A stretch of DNA of 64,000 bases from the NCBI GenBank assembly GCA_963758915.1, contig CAVWXH010000007.1, positions 1 to 64,000 of the forward strand. The letters run 5' to 3'. This stretch comes from an uncultured Methanomicrobiales archaeon. Lineage in GTDB: Archaea; Halobacteriota; Methanomicrobia; Methanomicrobiales; Methanospirillaceae. The position numbers were made by a program, and so were the translations under genes. Under the pieces are notes generated by a model that did no database searches, had not been told where the DNA came from, and was given only the letters and a program-made list of their open reading frames with translations. Shown in pieces: positions 23,129 to 35,313 of the stretch. The stretch's first letter is position 1; every line of letters starts with the position of its first letter.

Positions 23129-26100
23129 ATGAAAAGTCCAAATAGTTCTGTAAAAATTATGGAAATCGTGTGTATTGTTTTGCTTTGTCTCTCTTTTGGG
23201 ATGGCTTCTGTTTCAGCTTGGAAAATTGAAACAGTGGATTCAAATCCGCTAGGTAGTTATCAAGGAGGCACAGCCATCGCGCTCGATTCTTCTGGAGATC
23301 CAAATATCGCATTTGTCCATTGGAATAATAAATCAATCAGATATGCTACAAAATCCGGAGAAAGCTGGCTTGTGATGCCTGTTTCCAGTCCTACGTATGC
23401 CTATCCCGATCCATCACTCAAGATAGGCATAAATGGAATTCCCCAGTTGGTATATTACGACGTGGTGAATTTTGGCAATCCTGCAATAGTCTATGCAATT
23501 CTCCAGATGGGAACGTGGTCAAAACAGAAAATCGATAAAAGTTCTATGCCTTCTTCTTCGGGCGCATCCCATGCCTTGGCTCTTGATTCATATGATCGGC
23601 CGCATGTTGTCTATACGGGTTATAATGACTATTCCCTTAAATATGCCTGGTTTGATAATGCAGAAGGTAAATGGAAGAATGAAACAGTAGATCCGTATGC
23701 AAATATGGGTCCATTTTCATCAGCCGCCATCGATTCATCGAATCATCTCCATGTAGCGTATATTTCTAAGGACCAGAGAAGCTTGGAATATTACTATTAT
23801 GATGGACTCACCTGGACTAACACTACGGTATATAATGGAGGAAACTCGTATGCAGTCGGTTCTTATTGTTCAATCGATGTTGATGGATCAGGAAAACCCC
23901 ATATTGCGTTTGCCAAAAACTATAATGAACTGAATTATGCACGTTTTGATGGAACCCAGTGGATAATTGTCCGAGTTCCCGGACAATATGCAGCGGATGT
24001 TTCAATTGATGTAACCGAAGCAGGACTTCCATCCATCGCCTTTACAGACCATGGAAATGGAACGAACGCGGAATTGAAATATACCTGGTATGATGGACAA
24101 CAATGGAGAGTTCAGGTTATTGATACAGATGGGGATACAGGCCATGGGAGTAAGCTAGCAGTGGATTCAGCCGGAGCTGCCCATATCGTGTATTATGATG
24201 ATTCTCCTGTAACAGTTCATAGATTGCTGTATGCGGTAAATCATGCCCCAATTCTTAATTCGATTGGTTCAAAAGAGGTAAACCTTGGTAATACCATTAG
24301 TATATCATTAACCGCAACGGATGCCGAAGGAGATCCCCTAACCTATTCTACAAGCACCTTACCAAGCGGGGCAACATTGACTGGATCAACCTTCTCATGG
24401 ACACCAGGCGCTGGGCAAGTTGGAAACTTCCCTGTAACTATCACGGTCAGTGACGGGATCTTCATCGATAGTGAAATGATCACTATTACAGTGAATTCGG
24501 CACCAACCCCAGTACCGACCGTCACCGGCATCACACCGGCCACCGGCCCGCTTGCTGGCGGTACCTCAATTATCATCACCGGGACAGGTTTTACAGGAGC
24601 GACGGCGGTAAACTTTGGCAGCACACCGGCAACCTCGTATACAGTTAACAATGCCACCCAGATCACCGCGATTTCTCCAGCGGGGACCGGAACTGTTGAT
24701 ATCCGGGTAACTTCTTCTGGTGGTACATCTGAAACGGGATCAGTCGACCAGTTCACGTATGCACCACCGCTTCCACCAGGTCAGACTCCATGCACTTCCT
24801 GTATGGTGATTAATAATCCAGGTGTGTATGTCCTGCAGAATGATATCCTGAACAGCACTGCAACGAAGTGTATTGATATCCGATCATCCGATGTTACGTT
24901 CGATGGCAATGGACACACGATTGACGGAATTGGAACAACTTTCAGTACAGGGATATATGCAATGATGTACCCTCAAATGATTAGGGTCACGATAAAAAAT
25001 GTCACCGTAACTGACTGGTCCAGTGGTATCGACACCTCCTACGCCATAACGGAAGTGTTGAATTCAAATGCCTTACGCAATAGTGAGAGTGGCATCAGTA
25101 TTTGGAATGCACCGGATGGTACCCATCAGGGGAAACAGAGTAATCAATAGTACCTAAAAATTTTGGTTTATATCTTTCCAATGTCTCGTTTTCGATGATA
25201 TCTGATAATATTGTCGAAAGTATTCCCGGAGATGGAATAGCCCTCGGTTATAAGTCAAATAATAATACATTCATAAATAACACAGTATCCGGCAGTTTTG
25301 ATGGCATATCCCTTACAAGCTCGAGAAATAATACTTTCACAGATACCATTGCGTTTGGAAATAAGCAGTGTGGGATTAGTATCGGGACATCATCCTATAA
25401 CAACCGTTTTGTGAATACTACAACGAAGGGTAATAACTGGGGGATTAGTGTGTCTTCATCTGACAATAATATTTTTTTGAATCTTAACAGTTCAAATAAT
25501 CAATATGGCGTAGATTTATCAAATTCTAATTCTACGATAATCACCCAGAGTACGATCAGCAACAATTTAATATATGGACTCTCTCCCGCATTTTATAACG
25601 ACAATAGTTACAATATTACCATTTACAACAATTTCCTGAACAACACCCAGAATATAATGTTTTATAAATCCAATCCGAATACCTGGAACATCACAAAGAC
25701 ATCGGGAACAAACATTATCGGGGGTGCATTCCTCGGCGGTAACTATTGGGCAAATCCATCTGGCACCGGCTTTTCACAGACTTCCATGGATGCAAACGGG
25801 GATGGTATCTGCGATTCTGCATATACCATCGGAACGGGAAATATCGATTATTTGCCTCTTGGAGGTAAAAGGGACACGACACCGCCGGTAATTCTCCCGA
25901 TCTCCAACCCAACCCCGGTTCTCCCTGGAGCCAACGTAGTCATTAACGCCACAGTCACTGACAACGCCGGAGTAGCGGGGGCAAACGCAACGGTTAATTC
26001 AACAATATATACCATGACCGCCGTTGACGGTATATTTGGCGGTACCAATGAAGCGGTTAGTGTAACAATCCCGGCTTCAGTCTTACATATCGGGACCAAT

Positions 26101-29100
26101 ATCGTAACGATAACTGCAAGCGATGCAGCTGGGAACACCGTGACAGCACCACCCTTTATCGTGACCATTACCAATCCGAATCACCCTCCTATTCTCGACC
26201 CAATTGCGAGCCAGACTGTTACAAAGGGGCAGACCCTGATAATTACTGTATCAGCGAATGATTCAGATGGTGACGAACTCGTCTACACAGCTGATAACTT
26301 GCCTGCTGGAGCAACATTTGACTCAGTAACCAGAACTTTCTCCTGGACACCTGACGTTCAACAATTAGGCACCTATCATGTAGTATTTAGTGTTAAAGAT
26401 TCAATTGCCAGCGATAGCGAGACAGTAAAAATTACAATAAACGATCCAAATACCTATCCACTTGCGATTACAACAGACCAGTATGTAAATACGGTAAGTA
26501 CTGTTGATTTGTCGCATAGTCCGGCACTGATTACTATCTTGGGAAGCACTATCGGGCAACCGATGGATGTCGCAGTCAGTCCTGATTATAGTAGGGCTTT
26601 GGTGTCAGGCACCAATCAGGGAGAAGTAATAGTCTTTGACTTAACTCAGGCCCCGGCCCAGGAAATATCAAGGATAAGTGTAGGTGGAAGACCACAACAA
26701 ATTGCCATCACCCCTGATGGCAGAAAAGCGATTGTGGGCAATTCTCAAAATTATAACATAACAATACTGGATATATCTGATACGTCTCCGTCAATCCTCC
26801 AAGAAATAACCTTAAGTGGCAATCCGTATGGTGTAGGAATCACCAATGATGGGAACTACGCATTGGTATCAGTAATCACAAACCCCGGAAAACTATATGT
26901 AATTGATTTAAAAACAACTCCGGCCACTATCAAATATTCCCTTAATATTGCAAAATACAGTGAATTTATTGGAATGGATCCGAATGGAAAAACGGCAGTC
27001 GTGACTATGTTTGATATGACAGGGAACGTTACTATCGTTGATCTTACCACTGAACCGTTCACAGTAAAGGGTTATGTTTTGGTTGGGCACAACCCCGGTT
27101 CGGAACCCGCAATAACTCCAGATGGAAAATATGCCCTTGTAGGGAATTCGGATGATGATACCCTATCCGTGATTGATGTATCGTTGAGTTCGCCTGCGGT
27201 CGTGAAAACTCTATCAGTTGGGGATGATCCACGAGGTGTAGGCATTATTGATACCCAGAATGTTGCGCTTGTGGCGAACAGAGGTGTAGGAAATTCGCTA
27301 ACGAAAATTGATCTTAATACACTTACAGTCATTGGGACGATTACTGGATTAGCTTCACCAAATCATGTATCTGTGTATTATAAGGTAAAAGTGAATAATC
27401 CTCCAGCTCTAGCAATGATCGGAAATAAGACATTGAATGAAGGGGAGCAACTGAATTTCAACTTGTCAGCCATAGATGCAGATGGAGACCCCCTCACATA
27501 CAATGCAACCGGTGTTCCCAGATGGGCTACTTTCAATCCAGTTACAAAGACCTTCTCCGGAACGCCAGGATATTCCGATGCCGGTAGTTCAAGTGTTACA
27601 TTCTCAGTTACTGATGGTTCTCTCACCGACACGGAAGTCATTACGATTACCATAAACAATGTTAATCGGGCCCCGGTAGCAGCAGAACAGTCAGTAACAA
27701 CCGATGAGAATATTGCTGAAGCAATCACTCTCACTGCAACTGACGGTGATAACGACCCGATGACGTTCTCGGTTGTTACCGGTCCAGCCCACGGTACTCT
27801 GTCAGGAACCGCACCCGCTCTGACGTACACGCCAACTGCTAACTACAATGGTGCTGACTCGTTCACGTTCAAGGCTAATGACGGCACAGCAGATTCGAAT
27901 ACGGCAACGGTCAGCATTACGGTGAACCTGGTGAATGTAGCCCCGGTAGCAGCAGAACAGTCAGTAACAACCGATGAGAATATTGCTGAAGCAATCACTC
28001 TCACTGCAACTGACGGTGATAACGACCCGATGACGTTCTCGGTTGTTACCGGTCCAGCCCACGGTACTCTGTCAGGAACCGCACCCGCTCTGACGTACAC
28101 GCCAACTGCTAACTACAATGGTGCTGACTCGTTCACGTTCAAGGCTAATGACGGCACAGCAGATTCGAATACGGCAACGGTCAGCATTACGGTGAACCTG
28201 GTGAATATAGCCCCGGTAGCAGCAGAACAGTCAGTAACCACCGATGAGAATATCGCTACAGCAATCACTCTCACAGCAACTGACGCTGATAACGACCCGA
28301 TGACGTTCTCGGTTGTTACCGGTCCAGCCCACGGTACTCTCTCTGGAACCGCACCAGATCTGACCTACACGCCTACTGCTAACTACAATGGCGCTGACTC
28401 GTTCACGTTCAAGGCCAACGATAGTTTAGTAGATTCGAATACTGCAACGGTCAGCATTACGGTGAACCTGGTGAATGTAGCCCCGGTTGCAGCAGAACAG
28501 TCAGTAACCACCGATGAGAATATCGCTACAGCAATCACTCTCACTGCAACTGACGGTGATAACGACCCGATGACGTTCTCGGTTGTTACCGGTCCAGCCC
28601 ACGGTACTCTGTCAGGAACCGCACCCGCTCTGACGTACACGCCAACTGCTAACTACAATGGTGCTGACTCGTTCACGTTCAAGGCCAACGATAGTTTAGT
28701 AGATTCGAATACTGCAACGGTCAGTATTATTGTGAACCTGGTGAATGTAGCCCCGGTAGCAGCAGACCAGTCTGTAACCACCGATGAGAATATCGCTACA
28801 GCAATCACTCTCACAGCAACTGACGGTGATAACGACCCGATGACGTTCTCGGTTGTTACCGGTCCAGCTCACGGTACTCTGTCAGGAACCGCACCCGCTC
28901 TGACCTACACGCCAACTGCTAACTTCAATGGCGCTGACTCGTTCACGTTCAAGGCCAACGATGGTTTAGTAGATTCGAATACTGCAACGGTCAGTATTAT
29001 TGTGAACCTGGTGAATGTAGCCCCGGTAGCTGCAGAACAGTCTGTAACCACCGATGAGAATATCGCTACAGCAATCACTCTCACAGCAACTGACGGTGAT

Positions 29101-31393
29101 AACGACCCGATGACGTTCTCGGTTGTCACCGGTCCTGCTCACGGTACTCTGTCTGGAACCGCACCAGATCTGACCTACACGCCTACTGCTAACTACAATG
29201 GCGCTGACTCGTTCACGTTCAAGGCCAACGATAGTTTAGTAGATTCGAATATTGCAACGGTCAGTATTACGGTGAACCTGGTGAATGTAGCCCCGGTTGC
29301 TGCAGAACAGTCTGTAACCACCGATGAGAATATCGCTACACCAATCACTCTCACTGCAACTGACGGTGATAACGACCCGATGACGTTCTCGGTTGTTACC
29401 GGTCCTGCTCACGGTACTCTGTCCGGTATCGCACCAGATCTGACCTACACGCCTACTGCTAACTACAATGGCGCTGACTCGTTCACGTTCAAGGCCAACG
29501 ATAGTTTAGTAGATTCGAATATTGCAACGGTCAGCATTATTGTGAACCTGGTGAATGTAGCCCCGGTAGCAGCAGAACAGTCTGTAACCACCGATGAGAA
29601 TATCGCTACAGCAATCACTCTCACAGCAACTGACGGTGATAACGACCCGATGACGTTCTCGGTTGTTACCGGTCCAGCTCACGGTACTCTGTCCGGAACA
29701 GCACCAGATCTGACCTACACGCCTACTGCTAACTACAATGGTGCTGACTCGTTCACGTTCAAGGCCAACGATAGTTTAGTAGATTCGAATACTGCAACGG
29801 TCAGTATTATTGTGAACGTAAACCAGCCACCAAATATCGACGAGAACTCGGTCCTGTTTGATTCATCGATCACTGAAGGAGAGGCCCTGATCTTTATTGT
29901 CAGAGCGGAAGGAACAATACCGTTGGTCTATAATATCAGCCCATTAGACGGGGCTTCAATCAATCCCTCAACCGGAGAATTCATCTACACGGCCCCTGCG
30001 GGAAGTGCCGGGAGTTATGATATCACAATCACCGTGACTGATGCAAATACACTCACTGATTCTGTAACGATTCATATCACCGTTACCAGCGTCCCCATCC
30101 CGAACCAGCCACCAGTTCTATCCACAATCGGAAATAAAACCAAAAACGTTGGAGAATTGTTGACTTTCAGCATAAATGCTATAGATCCGGATGGAAACCC
30201 TCTAACCTACTCAGCATCAGGTCTACCTGCAAATGCCACATTCACTGGAACCACCTTCACTTGGACTCCTGCATTGAACCAGGTGGGGACACACACGGTT
30301 ACTTTCACTGTATCAGACGGCTCACTAAGCGATTCCGAAACAATCACCATAACTGTGACCAGTGTCATCAACCCGAACCTGCCTCCCGTCCTCGACCCAA
30401 TCGGGAACCAGACAGCAAGCCAGGGGCAACTCCTGACGTTCACAGTATCAGCCTTCAGATCCGGATAGTGCGACACTTACCTACTCGGCATCCGGGCTAC
30501 CAGCTGGCGCCACCTTCAACCCCTCAACAAAGACCTTCACCTGGACACCAGGCACCACTCAGTCAGGAAACTACCTCGTTAACTTCACAGTGTCGGATGG
30601 CTCTTTGACCGATTCAGAAGATGTGACAATAACCGTAACCAGCGTCAACAGCCCACCTGTCATTACTGCAATCGAATTCCCGGCAGACCCATACCAGAAA
30701 GGTTCAACTGTTTCGGTAACCGGATCATTCACCGATCCAGATACGACTGACACCCATACAGCCCAGTTCGCCTGGGGTGACGGGGCAACGTCAGCAGGAA
30801 TAGTTACTAAATCCGGAACAACAGGATCGGTTACCGGAAGTCATCTGTTCAATACCGTGGGTATTTACACCGTGAACCTGACCGTGACTGATTCAAAAGG
30901 GGCCGCAACAACCGCCTCATCAACAGATTTCGTGGTAATATATGATCCGGAGGGCCAGTTTGTAACCGGTGGAGGCGGCTACACCTCAGTTGCGGGATTA
31001 TACCTGCCAGATCCAACACTTACCGGAAAGGCGAGTTATGGCTTCAATGCAAAGTATAAGAAAGGGACGATGATCCCAGAGGGCAACACGGAATTCAAGA
31101 TTAAAGAGAAAAAAGGTGAAAAAGTCAAGTTCAAAGCAACCAGTTATGACTGGCTTGTGATAAGCGGAGCAAAAGCGACCTTCAGGGGATCAGGTACTAT
31201 CGATAAGGAAGGTAATTACGGATTCCTGATATCGTGTATTGACGGCACACTGGCAGGAACGGATGATAAGATCCGCGTGAGTATCTGGGACAAAGCCACA
31301 AACGCAGTCATTTATGACAACCAGCCGGGTGCCGGGATCAACGATGCCCCCACAATGAAAACAGAGGAAGGAAATATCAAAATCCATAAGTGA
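23129..31393 (+). CDS. Giant multidomain surface protein/adhesin (~2750 aa once three +1 frameshifts are corrected)
   Basis: ORFs 23129-25150, 25195-30468 and 30590-31393 join by removing one base each near 25123, 25154 and 30454. Domains: signal peptide, propeller-like repeats, He_PIG Ig, IPT/TIG, NosD beta-helix, YVTN propeller, 8 cadherin/Big_9 repeats, PKD (FAWGDG). Confidence 0.85.
27670..29829 (+). repeat. 8 tandem 270-bp (90 aa) near-identical Big_9/cadherin-like repeats
   Basis: Unit start GCCCCGGT(A/T)GC at 27670, 27940, 28210, 28480, 28750, 29020, 29290, 29560. Confidence 0.97.
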
Positions 31394-31554: not shown

Positions 31555-33045
31555 ATGCTGGAACAATGTGATCTGACAGAAACCACTGATGATAAAACGC
31601 TGGAAAAGGAGTTCCCACCACTCCAGGAGATGCTGGGTGTACTTCAGCGCACGGTCCAGAGCCGGAAAATCCCGGTTATAATCGTGATCGAAGGCTGGGA
31701 CGAATCAGGGATAACAGAAATTACGAGGGAGATCATCAGGTCGTTTGACCCTCGTGGCTATGACCTCTATGCAATCAAGGCCCCGACACCCGAGGAGACC
31801 GCGTACCCGTTCATGTGGAGGTTCTGGGGTAAAACACCTGAAAGCGGGCGTATAGCAATTTTTGCCAGGAGTTGGTACAGCAGGGCAATTAACGAAGAGA
31901 TGAAAAGACCTGGCTGGAAGAAATCGTTCAAAGGGAAGAGGGCCTCGATCAATAATTTTGAACGGCAATTTAGCAATGCCGGCGCGGTTATTATCAAATT
32001 TTTCCTGCACATCAGCAAGGAGGAACAGAAACGGCGCCTCGAACACCAGGAAAGAAACCCGCTGACCGCGTGGCAGGTCACCCCACGGATCTGGGCAGTC
32101 CATCACCAGTACGATGAGAACCTGCAGGTGATCGATGACCTGATCGAGAAAACGGATACCGATTATGCACCATGGCATATAATCCCGGCAACAGACCTCG
32201 GGTTGGCACTGTTGAAAGTTAATTCAGCCCTGGTGAAGGCACTGGAAGACCGGATCGATAAAAAAATTACTGACAGGAAAGGCACCACGAAGAAAGAGAA
32301 GAATTTCAACAGGGAAGTCCACCTCCCGAAGGCAAGGATGGTACAACTTGAGTCATCACCCCCTGCAGCCTGCATTAAGGAAGAATGCCAGGCGTCACTT
32401 GAACACCTCCAGTTCGAGATGATCGAGTTCCATTCTATCCTGCACAAGCGTAAGATCCCGTTGATTATTGTCTATGAGGGACGGGACGCTGCCGGAAAAG
32501 GGGGTAGTATCCTTCGGATTTCACGGTTTATGCACCCGTTCGGTTTCAATGTCGCGCCGGTTGGTGCACCTACCGATACCGAGAAAAAGCACCATTATCT
32601 CTGGAGATTTTACCAGAAGTACCCGAAAGCCGGGCATATCACCATCTTTGACCGGAGCTGGTACGGGCGTGTCCTTGTTGAACGGGTGGAGGGGTTCTGT
32701 TCAGAAAATGAATGGAAACGGTCGTACACTGAGATCAATGAAATGGAAGAGGAATTTACCGATAATGGGGGAGGTATCATTAAGTTCTGGCTTGAAATCA
32801 ATAAAGATGAGCAGCTGAAACGGTTCCAGCAGCGTGTTGCTGACCCGTTAAAGATCTGGAAAATTACAGAAGAAGACTGGCGGAACCGGGAGAAATGGGA
32901 CCTCTATACCCGGGCAATCGATGATATGCTCTCATATACCAACACCGATTATGCACCCTGGACCGTCATTCCGTCTGATGATAAATGGTATGCCAGGGTC
33001 AAGACGATGAAGACGCTCGTGGACTATGGACAATCAATTTTTTGA
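31555..33045 (+). CDS. Two-domain PPK2 family polyphosphate:AMP phosphotransferase
   Basis: Tandem PPK2 domains; C-domain EGRDAAGKGG and FDRSWYGRV intact; N-domain EGWDESGI/FARSWY degenerate. Confidence 0.9.
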   Translation: MLEQCDLTETTDDKTLEKEFPPLQEMLGVLQRTVQSRKIPVIIVIEGWDESGITEITREIIRSFDPRGYDLYAIKAPTPEETAYPFMWRFWGKTPESGRIAIFARSWYSRAINEEMKRPGWKKSFKGKRASINNFERQFSNAGAVIIKFFLHISKEEQKRRLEHQERNPLTAWQVTPRIWAVHHQYDENLQVIDDLIEKTDTDYAPWHIIPATDLGLALLKVNSALVKALEDRIDKKITDRKGTTKKEKNFNREVHLPKARMVQLESSPPAACIKEECQASLEHLQFEMIEFHSILHKRKIPLIIVYEGRDAAGKGGSILRISRFMHPFGFNVAPVGAPTDTEKKHHYLWRFYQKYPKAGHITIFDRSWYGRVLVERVEGFCSENEWKRSYTEINEMEEEFTDNGGGIIKFWLEINKDEQLKRFQQRVADPLKIWKITEEDWRNREKWDLYTRAIDDMLSYTNTDYAPWTVIPSDDKWYARVKTMKTLVDYGQSIF

Positions 33046-33282
33046 GTTTTCCCGGATATCCAGCCCTTTTTTCCGGAACTTTCAGGTCATGTTACAACAC
33101 GAAAATCTGCCGGTTGCACCAGGAAATTTCCGTTATAACATTCGAAATTTCACGGGATGACGATTCCTTCGCCATGGATACATACCAAATGAGAACCCCG
33201 CATGGTACCGGGGAATGGAAACGTCCATGTTTAAGAACAATCATTACGATAGTTCTAATGGAATTACAGGCCGGGTCTTCTC

Positions 33283-34806
33283 TTGCACCAGGAACACAGT
33301 ACAGCGTCAGGAATACGGCTGATAACCGCTGTTATTTTCATTATCCTTCTTATACTGCCAGGTGTGGCCTTCGCAGAGACTCTGGTAAATAATACCTCAG
33401 GCCACAATAGCACGACCAGTGTAGTAAAGGGGATCACCAGCCAGCTGCCAACACAGGACCCTGTGCTACCCCTGGCCCGGGAAAACACGACCGTTACCGT
33501 CAATCCACCTCCCACCCTCGTCCTCGGTACACCCAGGATTGAAAATCTCACCATTACCATGTACGGGGCAGTCGCTCCCGGCTCGGTGAACGTGACCCTG
33601 CTGTACACCCGCTGGGACTGGGGGGACAACCGCACACCGGAATACCATGGGTTCCCGTACTCGCATGTCTATGGCAGTCCCGGGACGTATACCATCTCGA
33701 TCACCGCCATGCAGTCAGACGGGCAGAATACCACCAAAACTACGACTATTTCCGTGGTGCAACCCATCATCATTTATTCGCTTCCCGTGACGCAGAATAC
33801 CTCTGCCCCGGGAGCTCCGGGGCGACCCGCCATGATAGCAGGTGTACCGGTACTGACCCTCCTTGAACCGGTGATCGACAGGATGAATGTCACACTGAAC
33901 GGGAATCTCAATCCCGGATCACCGGGTGCCGCCATCGAGTCGGTGAGTGTTGACTGGAATGACGGAAACATCACGAGATCTTCCGATCTCCCGGTAACTC
34001 ACCAGTACTCCGGTTTCGGGATTTACACTATCAGCATTACAGGAAACCAGTCCGACAACCAGTCAACCACCAGGAGACTTACACTGGACCTGAAGGAAGA
34101 GAAAAACGGCTTCCCCGACCTCAACGGACCTGCCGCATCAGGCCCTCCGCCAGTTGAACCTCCGGTGTACCTCATTATACTCGTTACAGTCGTCATCGTA
34201 GTGGCCACCATTGCCGTTGTGCAGCGGATCGCTCAGCGGAGGAAAGGATCGCTCCATGCCGGGGAGGTCCCGAAAAAATATTCACCGAGAGCAGGTCTGA
34301 TGCCGGTTAAACCGCTTTCACCGGAAGAACTAGGTACGATATGCTCCGGGACCGACGTTACACCGGGCGTGCTTGGTTCAGTCATCGGCGTCGCCATTGA
34401 AATTGCCCGGGAAGGGCGTGAGGGACAGGCGATCGGGACGTCCTTTATTGTCGGCGATAGTGGTAACGTACTGAACAATTCGAAACAGTTTGTCTTAAAC
34501 CCGTTCTATGGTTACCCTGAGGCCAAACGACAGATAACTGATGTTGAAATTCGAGGAAATATCAAGGAATTTGCCCAGCTGGACGGGGCGTTCCTCATCA
34601 CCGGCACCGGGGTCGTCGAGGCGGCAGGGAGGTGTATTACCGTAGACATGAGCCAGGTGGAACTTCCCGGGGGGATGGGGTCACGGCATTCGTCAGTCGC
34701 CGGAATAACCCAGGTCACCAAGGCAATAGGGGTCGTTGTCTCGCAGAGCGGTGGCCTGATCTCCATTTTCAGGGATGGAAAGATCGTTTACACTATCAAT
34801 TCGTGA
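33283..34806 (+). CDS. Membrane-anchored diadenylate cyclase with two extracellular PKD-like domains
   Basis: Signal peptide, WDWGD and VDWNDG PKD motifs, TM helix + RRK, DAC domain EGREG..IGTSF, EFAQLDGAF, GSRHSS, VSQSGG. Confidence 0.85.
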   Translation: MHQEHSTASGIRLITAVIFIILLILPGVAFAETLVNNTSGHNSTTSVVKGITSQLPTQDPVLPLARENTTVTVNPPPTLVLGTPRIENLTITMYGAVAPGSVNVTLLYTRWDWGDNRTPEYHGFPYSHVYGSPGTYTISITAMQSDGQNTTKTTTISVVQPIIIYSLPVTQNTSAPGAPGRPAMIAGVPVLTLLEPVIDRMNVTLNGNLNPGSPGAAIESVSVDWNDGNITRSSDLPVTHQYSGFGIYTISITGNQSDNQSTTRRLTLDLKEEKNGFPDLNGPAASGPPPVEPPVYLIILVTVVIVVATIAVVQRIAQRRKGSLHAGEVPKKYSPRAGLMPVKPLSPEELGTICSGTDVTPGVLGSVIGVAIEIAREGREGQAIGTSFIVGDSGNVLNNSKQFVLNPFYGYPEAKRQITDVEIRGNIKEFAQLDGAFLITGTGVVEAAGRCITVDMSQVELPGGMGSRHSSVAGITQVTKAIGVVVSQSGGLISIFRDGKIVYTINS

Positions 34807-34939
34807 GTCAGACAAGATTGATGGTGAACGGGAGTAGCGATTCTGCCCTTTTCGGATCAGGGGTACGCAATGTACAGGCTTTATCCCGGGGACTTTTGAG
34901 CCTGCCACGCCGTAGTACCAGGTGATCCTCTCGCTTTTC

Positions 34940-35313
34940 TGGCTGGTATGAAAAACTCCGGCAAAACAATCTGAAAGGCCACCTTTTTCATGCCCATCTA
35001 TGAGCCAAAAGGCTCATAGCACGCTCTGTAGAAACCCTGCATAATTAAAAAAAAGCAGATAGGTAAGACCAGGAGGGGGTTTCACCCCCCCTGTCCCACC
35101 CCCGATAAGATATTCATTGGCAGGTTTCAATTGGGACATTCAGGGGAATTTCAGAGATTAAAGAGATTATTCCTTATCCCAACCAGGGTCGCCAAAGCGG
35201 CGGGAGAGCCCTGGGAGGGTGACGAAATTTTGGAATTACCAAAAATCTCGTAAGATAGATTTGATAGGGTTTCAACAAAACCGGAATAACACTTTTTTGG
35301 CGGGTATCAGCCA
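34940..35313 (+). mobile_element. Composite MITE/REP-like element, copy A (outer flank + hairpin + inner TIR-bounded module)
   Basis: Outer ends TGGCTGGTA / TATCAGCCA; hairpin CTATGAGCC-AAAA-GGCTCATAG; inner inverted repeats 35023-35038 and 35266-35281 (13/16 match); homologues at 9777, 50845, 63293. Confidence 0.7.

Follow-up and report, generated by a model that had tools for sequence, protein, structure and literature searches.

Introduction

Signal control of its synthesis is the main open question for the second messenger cyclic di-adenosine monophosphate (c-di-AMP), and to our knowledge the characterised diadenylate cyclases (DACs), namely DisA, CdaA, CdaS and CdaM as well as DacZ, take their control from within the cell or by way of separate partners. 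Activity and essentiality have been reported for the archaeal DacZ/CdaZ enzymes (PMC6741144, PMC10249747), and YbbR/CdaR is reported to act through the transmembrane (TM) region of CdaA (PMC6368335). DAC catalysis needs two domains placed head to head; the stable dimer of DacA has its sites facing outward, and higher oligomers are required (PMC6368335). Here we describe a gene at 33283..34806 on the forward strand of a 64,000-nucleotide stretch of DNA (the window; positions 1 to 64,000 of contig CAVWXH010000007.1) from an uncultured archaeon of the Methanospirillaceae, order Methanomicrobiales, which encodes in a single chain (PKD-DAC) a signal peptide, a pair of PKD domains, one TM helix and, at the C-terminus, a DAC domain. 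We read the protein as a type I single-pass membrane diadenylate cyclase with a controlling ectodomain, and give this explanation as a whole a probability of about 0.6.

Domain architecture and topology

The open reading frame encodes 507 residues from a TTG start, upstream of which the open frame (515 residues) leaves room for only eight sense codons. The start is credible because homologues carry an ATG at the aligned 'MH/MR' position. The parts of the gene are listed below, conservation being given as mean pairwise identity, or as invariant columns, in an alignment of 26 family members.

33283..33375, + strand: signal peptide, residues 1-31, with TTG start, R12 in the n-region, hydrophobic core and PGVAFA/ET; hydropathy peak, AlphaFold2 (AF2) helix 8-29, A31 (position −1) in at least 90% of the 26 homologues
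33376..33507, + strand: N-terminal tail of the mature ectodomain, residues 32-75, of low complexity and rich in sequons; predicted local distance difference test (pLDDT) below 50, identity 0.27, sequons N36, N37, N42, N68
33508..33762, + strand: PKD domain 1, residues 76-160, motifs WDWGD and QSDGQ; Pfam PKD_4/PKD, sandwich at pLDDT 79-92, Foldseek, W113 G114 D115 invariant in 26/26, identity 0.58
33763..33846, + strand: interdomain linker, residues 161-188; mostly low pLDDT, identity 0.35
33847..34098, + strand: PKD domain 2, residues 189-272, motifs VDWNDG and QSD; second Pfam PKD stretch, sandwich 190-270, identity 0.68, P189, L191, T192, L194, P196 and V197 invariant
34099..34167, + strand: Pro/Gly-rich membrane-proximal stalk, residues 273-295; pLDDT below 50 at 274-294, identity 0.39
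34168..34242, + strand: single TM helix, residues 296-320, then basic stop-transfer QRIAQRRKG; hydropathy up to 3.16, AF2 helix 295-320, flanking charge in 26 sequences, identity 0.41
34243..34317, + strand: short cytoplasmic linker, residues 321-345, from the alignment; identity 0.30
34318..34422, + strand: pre-DAC helices, residues 346-380, which contain the conserved ICSGTDVTPEVL element and are a candidate for a signalling helix; AF2 helices 347-354 and 361-379, identity 0.69, G356, T357 and P361 invariant, C354, D358 and V359 in at least 90%
34423..34806, + strand: DAC catalytic core, residues 381-507, plus stop codon; Pfam, phmmer to DacA/CdaA structures, Foldseek, identity 0.76
34582..34590, + strand: DGA motif, D434 G435 A436; aligned to the DG of Staphylococcus aureus DacA, invariant in 26/26
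34681..34692, + strand: S467-R468-H469-S470, counterpart of T-R-H-R; aligned to GTRHRA of DacA, R468 and H469 invariant, S467 in at least 90%

Pfam assigns residues 375-500 to the DAC family (PF02457; 58.4 bits, cut-off 27, covering positions 3-118 of the 119 in the profile) and two stretches of the ectodomain to PKD_4 (PF18911; 51 bits, cut-off 27), with PKD (PF00801) at 40.2 bits (cut-off 23.5). The top NCBIfam model is DacZ (NF041371, in the 1e-31 range), aligned over its catalytic half only (model positions 122-266 of 270); the whole-protein score of 108.7 bits lies below the cut-off of 430, so that the protein is not a member of that family. The CdaA, CdaM, CdaS and DisA models gave 11-25 bits, with TIGR00159 (CdaA) at 25.4 against a cut-off of 188.8 and NF038327 (CdaM) at 25.2 against 225, and among the NCBIfam models scanned none spans the whole PKD-TM-DAC architecture. 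Pfam found no match in the protein to DacZ_A (PF21754) or DacZ_P (PF21755), the PK_C-like N-terminal domain; the same scan found DacZ_A in loci L062, L064, L072 and L073 and DacZ_P in L032.

An AF2 model of the full-length protein, built from the 26-sequence alignment (mean pLDDT 68, predicted TM-score (pTM) 0.38), has an N-terminal helix (8-29), a membrane helix (295-320), two helices ahead of the DAC domain (347-354 and 361-379), beta-sandwiches at 78-158 and 190-270 (blocks at pLDDT 74-92) and an alpha/beta domain at 386-506. Foldseek matched the sandwiches to solved PKD domains (target TM-scores of 0.86 for 6aem, 0.80 for 4l9d and 0.79 for 4jgu) and the C-terminal domain to chains of DisA (7y0d, 9y9y), DacA (6gyw/x/y), CdaM (8ofj) and CdaA, with target TM-scores of 0.5-0.62 for DAC-domain chains and 0.32 for full-length DisA chains. 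Pfam, hydropathy, AF2 and Foldseek thus bear out a preliminary description of this DNA, made from its letters, which had drawn a DacZ-like DAC domain behind a signal peptide, two PKD repeats and one TM helix.

The hydropathy profile has two hydrophobic peaks only (residues ~5-37 and ~288-319), the first of which, LLILPGVAFA/ET, has the shape of a Sec signal peptide and, by the A-x-A rule, is probably cleaved; the second, residues 296-318, runs into QRIAQRRKG. Sequons of the type N-x-S/T number 13 in ectodomain residues 32-298 and one in the 185 cytoplasmic residues; by chance 3.8 ± 1.7 would be expected in the ectodomain, and 13 were reached in none of 5,000 composition-preserving shuffles. 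Over the 26 members the density is 3.9 per 100 residues in the ectodomain against 0.28 in the cytoplasmic part, and positions N88, N103, N202 and N229 are retained in at least 70% of them. The mean net charge around the TM helix is −1.1 before and +1.2 after it in the 26 sequences. N-glycosylation in archaea happens on the outer face of the membrane, and the sequon asymmetry therefore puts the PKD domains outside and the ATP-using DAC domain inside. Together with the positive-inside rule, it strongly supports, across the 26 members, the orientation given in the preliminary description, with the PKD repeats outside and the DAC domain in the cytoplasm.

Catalytic residues

The phmmer alignment pairs D434-G435 with D176-G177 of S. 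aureus DacA, R468-H469 with the first two residues of RHR, S470 with the third Arg and S467 with T207, so that both the DGA and the RHS said earlier to replace RHR are present. In DacA, D176 and G177 contact the ribose and T207 a phosphate (PMC6368335); S467 is a conservative swap for this threonine, the residue ahead of RHR at the alpha-phosphate being Thr, Ser or Ala in DACs. D434, G435, R468 and H469 are invariant in 26/26 family members, and Asp, Gly and the first Arg of RHR are the residues reported as strictly conserved among solved DACs (10.1101/2022.03.11.483894; PMC6368335). The DAC core has the highest mean pairwise identity of all regions of the protein. Moreover, genomes of the source family have no DAC of another type, and a DAC is kept throughout the order, from which we infer that PKD-DAC is likely to be catalytically active and to make c-di-AMP from ATP.

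Two clade-wide changes qualify this. The third Arg of RHR is Ser here (Ser/Ala/Asn/Gly/Thr in the clade), and the Glu of V-S-E (VSEETG in DacA, SESGG in DacZ_A-type cyclases) is Gln (VSQSGG), whereas five DacZ_A-type cyclases of sister families that were printed have SESGG in all five and RHR in four, the fifth having RHM. We take both positions to be conserved ones near the active site. The DAC domain of the clade might accordingly not be a standard c-di-AMP synthase: it could be a weak or inactive nucleotide-binding pseudo-enzyme or receptor, make another product or use ADP. The DAC-fold enzyme PanS makes 3'3'-cUA, so that other cyclic dinucleotides are possible from this fold (10.64898/2026.08.10.743927), ADP is used by some DACs (10.1101/2022.03.11.483894), and a polyphosphate:AMP phosphotransferase gene lies near PKD-DAC in 13/27 loci. 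Against these points stand the invariance of Asp-Gly and Arg-His and the conservation of the DAC core. Furthermore, the third Arg is also missing in the compared DacZ-type sequences of Methanosarcinales and Nano-/Woesearchaeota (GTKHLA in both) and in those of Verrucomicrobia, and so does not define the DAC family in this branch; the RHS variant stressed in the preliminary description is real but not special to this protein, the third Arg being absent in most DacZ-related DACs compared. Finally, family genomes hold only this DAC type and a DAC-domain match occurs in 151/151 sampled genomes of the order, which suggests that the clade supplies the cell's c-di-AMP. We consider a non-standard DAC domain improbable, and a cyclase making c-di-AMP remains the preferred assignment.

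The replacement of RHR by RH-[S/A/N/G/T] and that of V-S-E by V-S-Q co-occur in the clade of sensor-fused DACs described below. The two may compensate for each other close to the phosphate/metal site.

The PKD-DAC family

A word-indexed search returned 529 homologues at E ≤ 1e-3 among 8,000 scored candidates, and all 120 of the best listed clusters (55-94% identity) carry PF02457 and PF18911 together. Their database names include 'diadenylate cyclase', 'PKD repeat protein' and 'DisA...', and the sources named for the listed homologues are Methanomicrobiales, Methanoregulaceae, Methanoregula and Methanolinea mesophila. In the ESM Atlas, a cluster with 130 members, all archaeal, has PKD and DAC in 100% of them. 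An alignment-based scan with one genome per species gave 431 relatives, among whose best 80 loci 59 match over the full span (residue 76 or earlier to the C-terminus); all 59 are from Methanomicrobiales, their hosts being Methanoregulaceae, Methanolinea, Methanoregula, Methanospirillaceae/Methanospirillum, Methanoculleus palmolei DSM 4273 and Methanosphaerula subterraneus EG. The remaining 21 are DAC-only matches in proteins of ~230-270 residues (one of ~580), mostly from 'Candidatus Methanoperedens', together with REC-PAS forms.

An assembly or annotation artefact, in which a PKD surface gene and a DAC gene were joined by misassembly or by a lost stop codon, would undo the reading altogether. 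The source genome is a draft of 18 contigs, and the frame is split in 4/25 related loci examined (L011, L016, L018, L028), but in the other 21 the frame is unbroken and retains DGA, G-x-RH and the two hydrophobic segments. The architecture also occurs in the complete genomes of M. palmolei DSM 4273 and M. subterraneus EG, and metagenome contigs from three runs of different studies (X1, 32877-34428; X12, 33167-34190; X2, 33574-34442) bridge the PKD/TM/DAC junctions with 1-4 differences. With the 120/120 clusters and the 59 full-span loci, this excludes the artefactual fusion that the preliminary description had named as a way in which it could be wrong, and we give the artefact practically no weight.

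The family comes in three forms. In the short-linker form, to which 33283..34806 belongs, 29-37 residues separate the TM helix from the pre-DAC element; in the long-linker form there are 95-106, with a predicted helical insert of ~65 residues; and a third, larger form of 620-700 residues, which includes that of M. subterraneus, has 111-118 linker residues and a GSRHAS motif. The number of PKD domains varies as well, with three in P0009 and one, the counterpart of PKD2, in M. palmolei (L025). The juxtamembrane insert of L019-L030 (alignment columns ~598-665) has the consensus ...YYEAK.RGDL.TAAASAH.CAR.FR..AE....R..YLE.AEKWE... and no Pfam match.

A maximum-likelihood tree of 55 DAC domains, whose bootstrap is not fully settled, places the 22 PKD-DAC rows of the short and long forms on one side of a branch with support 96/98. 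Fragments and broken frames (L006, L011, L016, L017, L018, L028, L051) and near-duplicate Puniceicoccales/Opitutales sequences (L035, L038-L044, L046, L047, L050) were left out. The 11 short-linker rows (100/92) nest among the long-linker rows, which suggests that the short form is derived and has lost the ~65-residue insert; the row of the third form (L055) has no firm placement. In a scan of 151 genomes of the order, no full-length PKD-DAC was among the listed matches of the order's other five families, 50 weaker matches lying outside the list and the divergent third form being missed by this query.

'Candidatus Methanoperedens' and related metagenome-assembled genomes (L113, L114, L120, L122, L124, L126-L134, L140, L143) encode mostly short DAC proteins of the GTRHSS/VSQSGG type, and this DAC subtype therefore reaches beyond Methanomicrobiales. 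They are 53-60% identical to residues ~323/349-506 of PKD-DAC.

Other DACs of the genome and the order

Three DAC genes, each bearing the SQSGG/RH[S/A] signature, were found in the source genome (2.38 Mb, 94% complete). The two paralogues (L001 in G000:C3, L002 in G000:C2) encode a REC-PAS-PAS-DAC of 554 residues and a PAS-PAS-DAC of 565 residues, the latter divergent, on a long tree branch and with REC undetected by Pfam; both have a related 'GTDV/GTRV' element ahead of the DAC domain. No DacZ_A-type cyclase was found in this 94% complete genome, nor any match to the c-di-AMP receptor PstA/DarA (PF06153); seven TrkA_C matches are unspecific. Most genomes of the source family have REC-PAS-DAC only, and the single-contig family genomes G011, G017, G081, G119 and G139 have one DAC match each, of the SQSGG type in the two inspected (G011, G017). 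Four other families have mainly frames of ~270-300 residues, four of which were inspected and are DacZ_A-DAC, with two DacZ_A forms of ~552 residues and some REC-PAS. As the genome itself has two cytoplasmic REC/PAS-DACs and most sampled family genomes are without a detectable PKD form, PKD-DAC is an accessory cyclase.

One further family has TrkH-DAC fusions of ~685 residues (L052, L053, L054, L056, L060 and L061, in G055, G025, G088, G049, G103 and G001). In the two scanned, TrkH scores 149-164 bits in Pfam and is fused to a DAC domain of the SQSGG type, which is a direct gene-fusion link of this DAC clade to cation transport. Other single-pass DACs were seen in L059 (G127), with a WD40/PQQ-like beta-propeller ectodomain, a TM helix and DAC; in L057 (G007) and L058 (G065), with ectodomains without Pfam match and, in L058, without DGA; and in L055 (G091), a PKD form of 660 residues in the third subgroup. 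All seven sensor-fused forms printed have VS[QS]SGG and RH-x-S within G-[TS]-R-H-x-S, five of them VSQSGG; the exceptions are the TrkH-DAC L053, which prints DGV, and L058, with VSSSGG and without DGA.

In the tree one polytomy unites the PKD-DAC clade with REC-PAS-DAC, TrkH-DAC and beta-propeller-TM-DAC proteins and with further ectodomain-TM-DAC ones, so that from these sequences DAC looks like a modular output domain behind varied input modules. That sister DACs carry such varied input modules is the strongest comparative argument for taking the PKD-TM part as an input module too.

Possible control of the cyclase by the ectodomain

Both PKD domains are under strong purifying selection, judging by identities of 0.58 and 0.68, close to the 0.69 of the pre-DAC helices and the 0.76 of the DAC core, beside 0.27-0.39 in the tail, linkers and stalk and 0.41 in the TM helix. 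Conservation so near that of the cyclase core argues for a specific extracellular function, and since the PKD domains are held while tails and stalk drift, the ectodomain does not appear to be a mere spacer. PKD2 opens with an invariant P-x-L-T-x-L-x-P-V strand.

The protein might nevertheless be a membrane-tethered, essentially constitutive cyclase, its PKD ectodomain an anchor or localiser (under the S-layer, near transporters) and its control cytoplasmic or by expression level. PKD is the commonest archaeal surface building block, and the ectodomain as a query matched 8,074 proteins, mostly giant multi-PKD ones. Most of the invariant ectodomain residues (WDWGD, VDWNDG, QSDG) resemble core motifs of the PKD fold more than an obvious ligand pocket; neither ligand nor partner gene is evident; and CdaM/DacM-type cyclases function with a mere N-terminal TM anchor (10.1101/2022.03.11.483894). 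A pure spacer would not, however, be expected at the identities of the two PKD domains, the invariant strand of PKD2 is kept even in the one-PKD Methanoculleus form, and in sister DACs the corresponding place is taken by genuine sensor modules (REC-PAS). We judge a plain tether unlikely, and return to the reading in which the ectodomain controls the enzyme.

How such control might reach the active site was addressed with a model of two copies of residues 290-507, which gave an ipSAE of 0.45 against 0.00 for the best of three controls and supports, but does not show, binding. The mark for pairing is reached by 20/30 proteins solved as one-chain pairs and by 1/23 solved as single chains; at least 48% of contacts recur between runs, the partner has a pLDDT of 81 or more, and the pass may be memory of solved DacA/CdaA dimers. 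The confident predicted interface (404-411, 415, 425-426, 429-430, 432-434, 449) leaves the RH and VSQSGG segments outside and, by ungapped extension of the alignment, would overlap the DacA dimerisation residues N166, T172 and P173. The predicted pair would not be the head-to-head catalytic pair, and catalysis would then need higher-order association.

A mechanism can be outlined on this basis. The protein would be exported by Sec, its signal peptide probably cleaved, and an N-glycosylated two-PKD ectodomain would stand outside; one helix would span the membrane, and a short linker and the conserved helical element would lead to a cytoplasmic DAC domain condensing two ATP to c-di-AMP. Two cytoplasmic domains would pair stably, and non-catalytically, via the helix/loop face just upstream of DGA, and synthesis would need pair-to-pair encounters in the plane of the membrane, as proposed for DacA/CdaA, a step that the extracellular domain could gate. 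That ectodomain and TM helix control this higher-order association or orientation, in answer to a conserved partner outside the cell or to the condition of its envelope, is a step we favour by a small measure. The output may feed potassium/osmotic homeostasis, given c-di-AMP biology in Haloferax (PMC6741144, PMC10249747) and in bacteria, and the TrkH-DAC sister fusions.

A stronger version would make PKD-DAC a true one-component receptor, in which the glycosylated PKD pair contacts a conserved envelope element (S-layer, sheath or a neighbouring cell's surface). A change in that contact, through a turgor-driven change in membrane-to-wall distance, envelope damage or cell-cell contact, would then drive dimers into head-to-head oligomers and turn c-di-AMP synthesis on, with potassium/osmolyte control as the result. 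A one-component transmembrane receptor is plausible from the sequence, and PKD conservation, the sensor modules of sister DACs and the predicted cytoplasmic pairing lend it indirect support; this particular version stays tentative, on balance somewhat doubtful.

Several observations weigh against a controlled cyclase. On the side of the enzyme these are the two clade-wide replacements, the precedent of PanS and the fact that our literature searches found no assay of any PKD-DAC family member. On the side of control, no ligand or conserved partner gene is evident, neighbours varying between loci, and many of the invariant ectodomain residues resemble PKD core motifs. The ectodomain was found on no other signalling output in the 21 mid-length matches scanned of the best 150 representatives, 12 of which are PKD-DACs and nine PKD proteins without signalling output (one ending in zinc ribbons, two perhaps truncated PKD-DACs). 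The low pTM makes the full-length AF2 model uninformative on inter-domain coupling. Lastly, the distribution is patchy: the protein is dispensable, since a full-length match occurs in only 5 of the 29 other sampled genomes of the source family.

Genomic neighbourhood, expression and habitat

Upstream of the gene lie those for a fumarase-class lyase, a 296-residue protein without family, a 673-residue protein with TIG and Big_9 matches, a 1,757-residue adhesin, a 267-residue PKD protein and a two-domain PPK2; downstream follow genes for an Fe-S protein, a major facilitator superfamily (MFS) transporter and an archaellin. The 267-residue protein has only generic PKD similarity to the cyclase ectodomain, and no cdaR or glmM lies near the PKD-DAC gene. 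The giant adhesin named in the preliminary description is real (25195..30468, NosD/beta-helix with 12 Big_9 stretches, cadherin-like), whereas its 'sheath-like' gene is the 673-residue neighbour, with TIG and Big_9 matches only. These two surface proteins form an island (23129-30468) at a G+C of 0.41-0.45 against ~0.50 around it. When 14 proteins of the window were compared with 27 loci by tblastn, the adhesin genes were matched in 0/27, and the block is missing from the otherwise syntenic L016. The neighbourhood pointed out in the preliminary description is thus not conserved, other neighbours varying elsewhere; the adhesin block is a variable island, possibly acquired, and not a partner of the cyclase.

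Two further sets were considered as operon or partner genes and rejected: the Fe-S, MFS and archaellin genes, syntenic in close relatives only, and 21 flanking genes in seven loci, with unrelated functions by Pfam. The sole recurring neighbour is the two-domain PPK2 (31555-33045), which at 571 bits exceeds the cut-off of 547.65 of the polyphosphate:AMP phosphotransferase equivalog TIGR03708. It recurs in 13/27 loci (L004, L009, L010, L015-L017, L019, L021, L026-L030), directly upstream on the same strand in six and 2-6 kb off on the other strand in seven, several of the 27 being too short to judge. Its recurrence may be inherited synteny, and a link to adenylate recycling could be behind it.

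A 237-bp gap precedes the PKD-DAC gene, with a TTTAAG element ~50 nucleotides upstream of the start that would be compatible with an archaeal promoter of its own; scans around the gene gave neither a tRNA nor an Rfam match at gathering threshold. Two contigs of one metatranscriptome library, at depth 2.5-3, match 33808-33925 and 34613-34797 without a difference, which hints weakly at transcription but may also reflect DNA carry-over; gene parts without RNA-library contigs in run X20 carry no information. The stretch is present at half or more of the sampled words in 12 runs; all holders come from 14 studies labelled freshwater, sediment or wastewater metagenomes, and the top one among them could be the sample of origin.

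Just downstream of the cyclase gene, intergenic positions 34935-35210 hold a dispersed repeat with 48 matches in its own genome (69-97% identity) and two modules, ~1-100 and ~90-270 of the 276-nucleotide query. In metagenome DNA runs it reaches a summed depth of ~65-210x, compared with ~11x for the gene, and loose ends are numerous. Folded as RNA, it surpasses 200/200 shuffles (z = −3.8); it has no tRNA and no Rfam family. It could be an element like a miniature inverted-repeat transposable element or a small structured RNA family.

Discussion

In full-text literature searches, in which the class catalogues of 2013 and 2023 stood outside the comparison, no paper was found that describes or tests the PKD-TM-DAC architecture. 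A PKD-containing archaeal class is said to be drawn in the 2013 catalogue of Corrigan & Gründling. That work names the archaeal classes DacV, DacW and DacX, with examples from Methanosphaerula, Methanospirillum and Methanoregula (cited in Braun 2019, PMC6741144), and a later census (Galperin 2023) has 22 DAC families (cited in PMC12901056). Example accessions of the three classes are not among the homologue clusters of the PKD-DAC or REC-PAS-DAC paralogue searches. The architecture is probably catalogued and certainly uncharacterised; the preliminary description knew of no characterisation, but its suggestion of novelty needs tempering, the family being large and already auto-annotated.

Its interest lies in wiring an extracellular domain to a cyclase in one chain, a simple system, amenable to genetics, in which to ask if oligomerisation gates DACs, and how. 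It also opens c-di-AMP signalling in methanogens, among which Methanoregulaceae appears to have swapped the standard DacZ for sensor-fused cyclases, and homologues in the cultured M. palmolei DSM 4273 and M. subterraneus EG make the idea testable. Should PKD-DAC be a receptor, it would be an archaeal single-chain counterpart of CdaA-CdaR and the first DAC for which direct reading of a cue from outside the cell is shown; with TrkH-DAC and propeller-TM-DAC, it would make DAC a general receptor output in Methanomicrobiales, like GGDEF in bacteria. Were it a constitutive tethered enzyme, the finding would be ordinary.

Compared with known systems, the closest DAC domain is that of DacZ/CdaZ (Haloferax volcanii DacZ, Methanocaldococcus jannaschii CdaZ), and with DacZ-type sequences PKD-DAC shares EGREG, LNPF-G and IKE-AQLDG. 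It differs in lacking the PK_C-like N-terminal domain (DacZ_A/DacZ_P) and in having a membrane anchor and an extracellular part; and where the DacZ_A-type cyclases of Methanomicrobiales have GRHR (GRHM in one of the five printed) and VSESGG, PKD-DAC has SRHS and VSQSGG. With REC-PAS-PAS-DAC, TrkH-DAC and the other sensor-DACs of Methanomicrobiales it shares signature and tree polytomy, but their inputs are cytoplasmic REC-PAS, polytopic TrkH and beta-propeller or unassigned ectodomains in place of PKD-PKD; these fusions are probably among DacV/DacW/DacX. Receptor guanylyl cyclases of animals likewise join a ligand-binding domain outside the cell, through one TM helix, to a cyclase in the cytoplasm with its active site between two chains; the analogy is functional only, folds and chemistry being unrelated.

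In the CdaA/DacA, CdaR (YbbR) and GlmM system of Firmicutes the DAC is bound to the membrane and its output is linked to the extracytoplasmic side, as would hold for PKD-DAC, and the predicted pairing face of PKD-DAC would overlap the dimer face of DacA. CdaA, however, has three N-terminal TM helices and a YbbR partner, whereas PKD-DAC has a signal peptide, one TM helix and its PKD ectodomain in cis. CdaM/DacM of Mycoplasma shares the single TM helix before a cytoplasmic DAC domain (10.1101/2022.03.11.483894), but this is an N-terminal anchor only, without ectodomain, in contrast to the ~265 extracellular residues that precede the TM helix of PKD-DAC. By analogy, PKD-DAC would resemble a CdaA-CdaR pair fused in one chain, or a CdaM with a real ectodomain.

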